Shown: piece by piece, positions 57,443 through 59,258 of the stretch
Layout: the number at the start of each line of letters is the position of its first letter
How positions within the stretch are numbered: the first letter of the stretch is position 1
NCBI GenBank assembly: GCA_964016885.1
Contig: OZ024741.1
Location: 218,860,001-218,924,000 of the forward strand
Direction of reading: 5' to 3'
Length of the DNA stretch: 64,000 bases
DNA from: Eledone cirrhosa
Lineage: Eukaryota
Notes under the pieces: model-generated
Seen by the model: only the letters and a program-made list of their open reading frames with translations
Database searches by the model: none
What the model was told of the DNA's origin: nothing
Position numbers and translations under genes: made by a program

Positions 57443-59258
57443 TGAGTTCAATTCTCGGACGGGGTGATGTGTTGTTTTCTTGAGCAAGACACTTTATTTC
57501 ACGTTGCTCCAGTTTACTCAGCTGTAGAAATGAAATGATAGGACCGGGGTCCCTATCATTAAATCACTCAAGACACCTCCAACGAGATATACCGCCCGGA
57601 GAATCACGGCCCCTCTCAACGTTTGGTATCTGGATGATGCTACGTTGGGCGGGCCCGTACGGACGGTCTGCCAAGACATTCAATCGGTGATTCCTGCCCT
57701 GGCGGGAATCGGCCTCCAGGTCAACTCGGCCAAGTCGGAGGTGGTGAACGTCAGCCTCGATGCTGCGAGCTTTGCAGCTTCCGTCTTGGACGTGCGGTCC
57801 ATTCTTCGCCAGGTTCAGATGACCACCAAAGAGGATGTCCTCATCCTCGGGTCACCGATTCACCCGCCGGCCATCCGCTCCACCATCAGGTCAAGGCTTC
57901 AACAGCTCCATACTCTCACGAGCCGACTGGGCCTGATTGACGGCCACCCAGCTCTCTTTCTGCTGCCGAAGCTCCTCTATACACTCCGCAGCGCTCCATG
58001 CTACACCCAGACATCTCTTCTCGCTGACCTCGATACTTGTATCCGAGCAGCAGCCTAGGGGATATGCAACGTCAAGTTTGACGACATAGGGTGGCAACAG
58101 GCCACTTTACCAGTCAGGTATGGCGGCCTAGGCCTCTGGTCCCCGATCTCACTAGCTTTGCCGGCGTATCTTTCGTCGGTAACCTCGTGCCGCGTCCTCG
58201 TCAGCAGGGTTCTTCAAAACACAACAGAACCCTCTGTGTTCAGAGAACGTGAGGCCGCCTATGAGACGTGGGACCGTCTCTACTCTTTCTCCCCCTGTTG
58301 ACGTCAAATCCCCCCAACGCACTTGGGATGCCATCCAGTGCAGCCTGGCCTCAGACAGGCTTACGCGCCAGCTCGACCAGCACCGCCTTGCTTGTTTTCG
58401 TGCGGCCTCCAAACCCCACAGTGGTGCCTGGCTCCATGCTCTGCCCTCCTTCTCCACTGGAACGCAGCTAGACAACCATAGCCTGCGAATCGGCGTTTCC
58501 CTGAGGCTCGGCCTCCGGATCTGCCAGCCACACCAATGTCGCTGCGGTTTCACCGTGGACACTTTCGGCCTCCACCCGCTTTCCTGTCGCCACAGTGCCG
58601 GCCGCATTCCACGCCATACTGCCCTCAACGAGGTCATTAAGCATGGCTTGGACGCTGCAGGCTTCCCTTCCCAGCTCGAGCCGGTGGGGCTGGATCGAGG
58701 GGACGGCAAAAGGCCAGATGGTATGACCATCTTCCCGTTCCGCGGTGGTAAACCCCTCGTCTGGGATTCCACTTGCACCGACACTTTCTGTAGCCACAAC
58801 CTGGTGCAGTCTGCGACTAACCCAGGTACTGCTGCACGTCGGGCTGAGGGGGCCAAACTCCTCAAATACCGGTCGCTTTCCGACAGGTTTGCGGTCGTTC
58901 CCCTGGCAGTTGAAACGTCTGGTGTCCTCGGCCCCAGGGCTACCTCCTTACTCACCACCATAGGCGCTGAGCTGGTCAGCCGCAGGTGTGAGCCCCGCGA
59001 GTTGGAGTGGCTTTTCCCACGCGTCTCCTTTGCCGTCCTCCGTGGAAACGCCTTCTCCATTCTGTCCGCCGGGGCTGTGGGTGGGCCCCATCACGTACCA
59101 ATACATTAGTTAAATACCATTCTTTCATCTCATACATATATACATGATTACTTGTAGCCTGATCACTTGGCTTTTAACTTCTAGTATTTGTTTAGAGAAC
59201 ACCTTGGAGGAGGCCAGCTAAAGCTGCATAGGGGTGAGCTGTCACAACAACAACAACA
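57443..59258 (+). mobile_element. CORE-SINE split by, or fused to, a CRE-like LINE
   Basis: SINE body 57443-57593 and tail end 59201-59258 together reconstruct the intact SINE at 62108-62340. Confidence 0.85.
57594..59109 (+). pseudogene. 5'-truncated CRE-like non-LTR element: RT C-half, Zn knuckle and RLE
   Basis: PLNVWYLDDATLGG; GGLGL; SGAWLHALP; CRCG...GLHPLSC...RH; DGKRPDG...LVWDSTC...PLAVETSG...RGNA. One stop (58056-58058) and frameshifts; GC-rich. Confidence 0.85.

Follow-up and report, generated by a model that had tools for sequence, protein, structure and literature searches.

The 64,000-nt stretch of the Eledone cirrhosa genome analyzed here (herein referred to as the window) contains a composite of two retrotransposons that we consider to be probably the product of one nested insertion, in which a LINE entered a resident SINE with a 3-bp duplication. 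The insert (57594-59200, 1,607 bp) interrupts a CORE-type SINE, is flanked by ACC at both ends, and is an RLE non-LTR retrotransposon, CRE-like in type. That the SINE came first and the LINE second follows from the fact that it is the SINE that is split. A sequence-only reading of the same DNA had described a CRE-like RT-RLE LINE lodged within a CORE-type SINE tail, and this description holds: the junctions are exact, and two uninterrupted copies of the SINE read across the site (table 1).

Table 1. Coordinates of the composite locus and of related elements in the window.
Feature	Position	Strand	Basis
Left part of host SINE, from B-box-like segment and CORE-like body through first tail hairpin to left arm of second hairpin	57441..57593	+	identity to empty copies
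ACC, left copy of 3-bp duplication, SINE sequence	57591..57593	+	junction, homology, codon tally
5'-truncated, decayed RT-RLE reading frame, 59.8% GC	57594..59109	+	51% identity to P0001 from ORF residue 21
C-terminal CCHC zinc knuckle and presumed restriction-like endonuclease motifs (RPDG, WDxT, ExxKxxKY)	58537..58869	+	motif positions; invariant alignment columns
LINE 3' UTR, 91 nt, 30% GC, without poly(A) or simple repeat	59110..59200	+	composition, sequence inspection
ACC, right copy of 3-bp duplication	59201..59203	+	junction comparison with empty copies
Right part of host SINE tail, from right arm of second hairpin through terminal hairpin to (CAA)4	59204..59258	+	identity to empty copies
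Uninterrupted, nearly full-length copy of host SINE, empty site	62101..62338	+	alignment
Uninterrupted, 5'-truncated copy of host SINE, (CAA)n end, empty site	9515..9701	-	alignment
Sister SINE: head and CORE-like body of host SINE, other tail matching RTE-type LINE 3' UTR, (GAT)n end	24098..24428	+	24261-24380 vs 28125-28244, 80%
Sister SINE with RTE-type tail	3261..3654	-	3261-3477 vs 28146-28352, 73%
5'-truncated RTE-type LINE, 3' UTR matching tail of both sister SINEs	26354..28360	+	RVT_1 E 1e-32
Short remnant of related CRE-like LINE, ORF 3' end, inverted 5' piece 5971-6012	5971..6090	+	90% over 40 nt, 81% over 42 nt
Older, more diverged CRE-like remnant	45387..45849	-	tblastn E 3e-7

The left junction reads CAACGAGATATACC/GCCCGG (57593/57594; slashes mark the breaks) and the right junction TTTAGAGAAC/ACC/TTGGAGG (59200/59201-59203/59204), after which the SINE tail continues into (CAA)4 and ends near 59258. 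At its other end, the SINE match begins at 57441, two bases ahead of the 57443 given in the sequence-only reading. The protein homology of the insert begins with the codon GCC at 57594, and threonine (codon ACC) occupies the column just before the insert in 2 of 102 motif-bearing homologues (240 fetched). Because threonine is found in only these two homologues at that column, the ACC on the left belongs to the SINE, and the triplet occurs twice; together with the start of homology at 57594, this means that the overlap is most readily explained by a 3-bp duplication or by microhomology at the 3' end. An ACC end is expected by chance at about 1%. Two overlaps had been put forward from the sequence alone, of which the 3-bp ACC stands, being found on both sides with its left copy in the SINE. 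The diverged overlap of about 9 bp is marginal (p 0.035-0.07): 3.5% (UTR composition) to 7% (window composition) of random 9-mers equal its score against GAGATAT (20,000 draws). It is not clearly above chance, and we do not prefer it over 3 bp.

Both parts of the host SINE are found joined in its relatives. The left part is 95.4% identical over 153 nt to 62143-62295 and 96.2% identical over 132 nt to 9570-9701; the right part (from 59201) is 94.8% identical over 58 nt to 9515-9572 and 93.5% identical over 46 nt to 62293-62338. In both empty copies (2 of 2 with this tail) GAGATATACC passes directly into TTGGAGG, unbroken as GAGATATACCTTGGAGG, and the 20-mers of tail and site occur at three places only in the window, all of them SINE copies, so that one of the three sites with this tail in the 64-kb window is occupied and two are empty. 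Over the left half, the host differs from the empty copies at 5 and 6 of 132 positions and these differ from one another at 3 of 132; over the right half, the corresponding counts are 3 and 3 of 43, and 2 of 43. By these counts, the two halves appear to have drifted in proportion, as expected of a single old copy.

The host SINE lacks the first ~40 nt of its head, and a (GT)n array adjoins. Five further copies with its head and body lie in the window, one of which (44694-44813) stops within the SINE body. A 19-nt body motif (about 62181-62199) matches 16 of 19 nt of the CORE of WALLSI2, by eye and for the 5' motif only; the WALLSI2 CORE is printed in the supplement of PMC5786205. Box-like segments can be made out by eye in 62101-62160, 24098-24170, and 3590-3654; ARAGORN returned 0 tRNA genes and Rfam no tRNA. 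An Rfam scan of 57400-62400 gave two matches alone, both to mir-297 and microsatellite-driven. A protein search with the 45-aa open frame of the SINE yielded 0 of 8 candidates at E <= 10, which is weak evidence.

The LINE is truncated and decayed. The insert begins ten codons ahead of YLDD, and therefore most of the RT is missing. Its lesions comprise an in-frame deletion of six codons (18 nt) near 57963, an in-frame TAG stop at 58056-58058, and a frameshift near 58270-58310, and the reading frame terminates with a stop at 59107-59109. As judged from its reading frame, the LINE is predicted not to code for an active protein. A Pfam search with four truncated frames gave no match, and a PDB search with the RLE part alone gave no real match. 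The homologues of the insert carry RVT_1, and its YLDD part of the RT, CCHC knuckle, and RLE motifs are collinear with single-ORF homologues; an RT followed by an RLE in a single ORF, as the insert has it, is common to all RLE clades. The proposal that the insert brings no tail of its own was borne out, since neither poly(A) nor a simple repeat precedes 59201.

Related to the insert are 185 longer proteins and 253 of similar length, with best identities of 67-72%; no copy of the insert's own LINE family was seen, since no related protein exceeds 72% identity. Proteins of Octopus sinensis are among the named relatives (54-60% identity), as is P0067, named "Retrotransposable element SLACS protein" (47% identity to the insert), and with a 24-sequence family profile, the best PDB matches were R2 proteins (E 1e-19). 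Many of the relatives (P0021, P0025, P0027, and others) carry an extra ubiquitin C-terminal hydrolase (PF00443) or PHD (PF00628) domain. CRE-type LINEs are reported from cephalopod genomes, and among molluscs almost only there (PMC10294476); the same source counts CRE, R4-Dong, and expanded RTE-BovB types among the features that mark cephalopods within the molluscs. A tree of 24 rows (two of them badly cut, P0027 and P0112, and without reference CRE, R2, R4, NeSL, or HERO sequences) did not resolve the place of the insert. The 3' poly(A) of trypanosomatid CRE elements is absent from the insert, with no A-run or simple repeat before 59201, and the insertion site is a SINE tail, not a spliced-leader gene or telomeric repeat. 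Given the unresolved tree, and with neither poly(A) nor a classical target at the locus, we do not file the LINE as a CRE member and treat it as a candidate for the clade.

Six-frame translations of the SINE and UTR gave no meaningful match among the 240 fetched proteins (best E 0.71), and the ESM Atlas returned mostly eukaryotic clusters without Pfam families. A scan of bacterial and archaeal genomes (28 of 64 parts covered) gave one locus, L001, in which a eukaryote-type RLE fragment (L001:1-700, contig CAVVXR010000034.1) sits at the extreme end of a bacterial MAG contig and leads into GC-rich, bacterial-looking DNA; the fragment is likely a misjoin or contamination and is uninformative on LINE 3' ends.

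The window is AT-rich (37.9% GC), with tandem repeats accounting for 26,276 of 64,000 bp and with many SINEs and LINE remnants. A second SINE-like family is represented by 20 merged segments (43217-45260, 59453-59625, and other sites), with a dense cluster at 43.2-45.3 kb, and its copy near 45055-45260 shows an apparent flanking duplication of about 15 nt. Several long inverted-repeat pairs of 94-100% identity (56144-56267 with 57047-57171, 11008-11453 with 15166-15611, 52345-52494 with 52993-53140, and 19538-19645 with 19895-20002), some of them enclosing microsatellites, resemble non-autonomous DNA transposons. The C-terminal fragment of another RLE-type LINE frame (55005-55409, plus strand, flanks to about 55790; RPD-type motif), presumably R4/Dong-like by its motifs, is followed by a UTR and (TA)n; Pfam and PDB searches with it were empty. 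A bacterial promoter and terminator scan was likewise empty and is irrelevant here.

Two other CRE-like remnants lie in the window, and because they belong to other subfamilies than the insert, they test the rival explanations weakly. The UTRs of the remnants gave no reliable alignment to that of the insert (dinucleotide-shuffle p 0.11-0.27, one real-segment p 0.007). A terminal motif common to the insert and the remnant at 5971-6090 was considered and left unsupported by the same shuffles (p 0.11-0.27). The 5' piece of this remnant is inverted and partly duplicated, as from twin priming.

The sequence-only reading had named L2, CR1, and RTE as the usual partners of CORE-SINEs, and the sister copies in the window do carry the tail of an RTE-type LINE (73-80% identity). 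That LINE, which we take from its motifs to be of the RTE clade, has an open 534-aa frame with a PHD finger after the RT core. A second RTE-type remnant (23378-23870, plus strand) shares the terminal hairpin and likewise ends in (GAT)n; a weaker RT remnant lies at 40708-40965 (minus strand). The same SINE head and body occur with two different tails (3261-3654, 9515-9701, 24098-24428, and 62101-62338), the switch lying in or just past the first tail hairpin. For the (CAA)n tail, neither alignment nor a covariance model found a partner LINE in the window: sequence alignment to the RTE ends gave p 0.14 or worse, and none of the 22 matches of the RTE-tail covariance model fell on it. The terminal hairpin of the (CAA)n tail has the shape seen in RTE-type ends; as a case for RTE origin this hairpin shape and the (CAA)n end are alone suggestive, and kinship appeared in neither the alignment nor the model. 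A (CAA)n end is reported as common in animal RTE LINEs and their SINEs (PMC6007223, in part), and the bivalve CORE, V, and Meta SINEs treated in part of PMC11481361 have CR1, CR1-Zenon, L2, and Nimb as partners. We attribute the (CAA)n tail to the SINE, with an RTE-type LINE as its likely partner.

Folding places the insertion within a structure of the SINE. Three hairpins form in each intact tail, with z of -2.85 and -3.51 and with none of 200 shuffles equalling either; the stem of the middle hairpin has one arm on either side of the insertion point, and the site is at the loop edge of a stem. A hairpin energy test on 67-nt junction pieces was significant for no SINE copy (p 0.06-0.27).

The best surviving alternative, one of two proposals in the sequence-only reading, is that the LINE family prefers this site, its endonuclease recognizing the sequence or hairpin at GAGATATACC/TTGGAGG, with the high-copy SINE serving as a safe harbor. 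Target specificity is described as the rule in the CRE, R2, R4, and NeSL clades, with exceptions, and the known targets of site-specific LINEs include transposons (PMC4640811 and PMC8869645). Several features of the locus speak for such a preference: a clean junction with a short duplication, LINE and SINE on the same strand, a position at the loop edge of a stem, and a LINE end that resembles the target (GAGAACACC vs GAGATATACC, p 0.035-0.07). However, it is a single event, two of three sites in the window are empty, and both CRE-like remnants, though of other subfamilies, lie in unrelated flanks, with a site-like 5' flank at 0 of 2 (best 8 and 9 of 20 identical), whereas landing in some SINE by chance has a likelihood of about 6%. 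We regard a preference for this site as unlikely, and the same doubt attaches to the fuller proposal that a cephalopod CRE-like LINE evolved to target the CORE-SINE tail hairpin, cutting at ACC/TTGG with a LINE end that mimics the target. Were the preference real, this would be an RLE retrotransposon parasitizing a SINE as a safe harbor; the known target classes of such elements would grow by one, and a short natural DNA target would become available for testing endonuclease site choice.

The sequence-only reading had also proposed that the LINE itself ends in the (CAA)n tail, which the SINE would have taken from a CRE-like partner, so that the locus would be a SINE-LINE chimera. Such an origin would account for an insert without a tail of its own; SINEs do swap tails, the host SINE family has two tail types in the window, no partner was found for the (CAA)n tail by alignment, covariance model, or protein search, and the LINE UTR and tail can be drawn together as a G-U-rich hairpin. 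That hairpin, however, does not outperform shuffled sequence (z +0.54, with 140 of 200 shuffles equally good; p 0.59), and the first 7 nt of the tail pair with SINE sequence upstream of the site that is absent from the LINE: a perfect complement of the tail start is 7-8 bp long in the SINE (p 0.01-0.04, from copies that are not independent) and 5 bp long in the LINE UTR (p 0.6). An anchored alignment of the LINE UTR with the SINE upstream of the site gave p 0.15-0.21, with no homology beyond GAGA, and the SINE part would have to end exactly at the start of the shared tail. The tail follows 0 of 2 CRE-like remnants (p 0.91 and 0.36), a weak point, as these are of other subfamilies. With a tail fold that spans the junction, no homology between UTR and SINE, and the tail absent behind both remnants, we set the chimera aside as very improbable; were it true, the SINE would have a partner from a clade for which we found none reported among open-licence titles. 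Those titles included none on a CRE-partnered SINE or a SINE-targeting CRE.

As improbable as the chimera is a SINE-LINE-SINE composite formed once and then copied as a unit, through recruitment of the SINE's partner LINE by the SINE tail or through read-through, with the locus as a daughter copy: the SINE head of the unit is 5'-truncated and its (CAA)n tail end intact, as in a retrocopy, but the unit holds four T4 runs (57475, 58395, 59012, and 59172), which would likely stop RNA polymerase III, and lacks the A-box part of the head, and on these two grounds such copying is highly unlikely; moreover, no second composite was found in the window and no flanking duplication is visible, although the 5' flank is a microsatellite.

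A single nested insertion remains the preferred explanation. The sequence-only reading had named a one-off insertion as the outcome that would undo both of its proposals, and it is this outcome that fits best, given the empty sites, the fold across the site, and the remnants without the tail. Outside the insert, SINEs make up 6.8% of the window (about 6.3% without three low-complexity matches at 62971-63563), and the host SINE family covers 2.6% (about 2.2% without the same matches); because SINEs cover about 6% of the window, nested LINE-in-SINE events are to be expected, many per genome. Counting against a single insertion is the insert's want of a tail of its own, unlike trypanosomatid CRE elements, for which a poly(A) 3' end is described as general (PMC12278014, in part). 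Also against it are the target specificity usual in RLE clades, the want of a second copy of the LINE family among the sequences compared, the junction energy test without significance, and the (CAA)n tail for which no kinship with RTE ends appeared.

In the sequence of events that we envisage, the LINE endonuclease would have nicked the resident SINE at the ACC/TTGG step, and reverse transcription would have begun at or near the LINE 3' end, perhaps aided by the GAGA that the LINE end and the target have in common. It would then have halted shortly beyond the YLDD codons, and a joining step with a stagger of 3 nt may have completed the insertion, after which both elements would have decayed in place, neutrally. 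The LINE would on this account have had no target preference. The composite structure is most likely without function, since no active protein can be made from the LINE and the tail structure of the SINE is split. The nested insertion dates the LINE as younger than the host SINE copy, and it points to a GC-rich CRE-like family, with best protein relatives at 67-72%, that was once active in the Eledone cirrhosa genome.

Among known systems, the host SINE resembles CORE-SINEs (octopus OR1/OR2, WALLSI2, and MAR1) in its head with apparent A/B-box-like segments, its CORE-like motif, and its exchangeable LINE-type tails, one of them RTE-type; the likeness to OR1/OR2 is one of description, and the octopus CORE-SINE is OR1 or OR2 depending on the source, the naming differing between PMC4824008 and PMC4758252. 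With the CRE clade (SLACS, CZAR, and CRE1/2, with MoTeR related), the insert shares a single frame in which CCHC and RLE motifs come after the RT and a putative short target duplication, target-site duplication being given as a feature of the clade (PMC3636483, in part); it differs in its truncation and decay, in the want of poly(A), and in a site that is neither a spliced-leader gene nor a telomeric repeat. Transposon-targeting LINEs such as Tx1L of Xenopus likewise lie within another mobile element; however, LINEs of that type are defined by repeated insertion at one site, and here there is one event. The target of Tx1L is a DNA transposon, and its nuclease is APE-type. From the ordinary nested retrotransposon insertion we saw no difference: the locus shares with it a split host element, a short duplication, 5' truncation, and decay.
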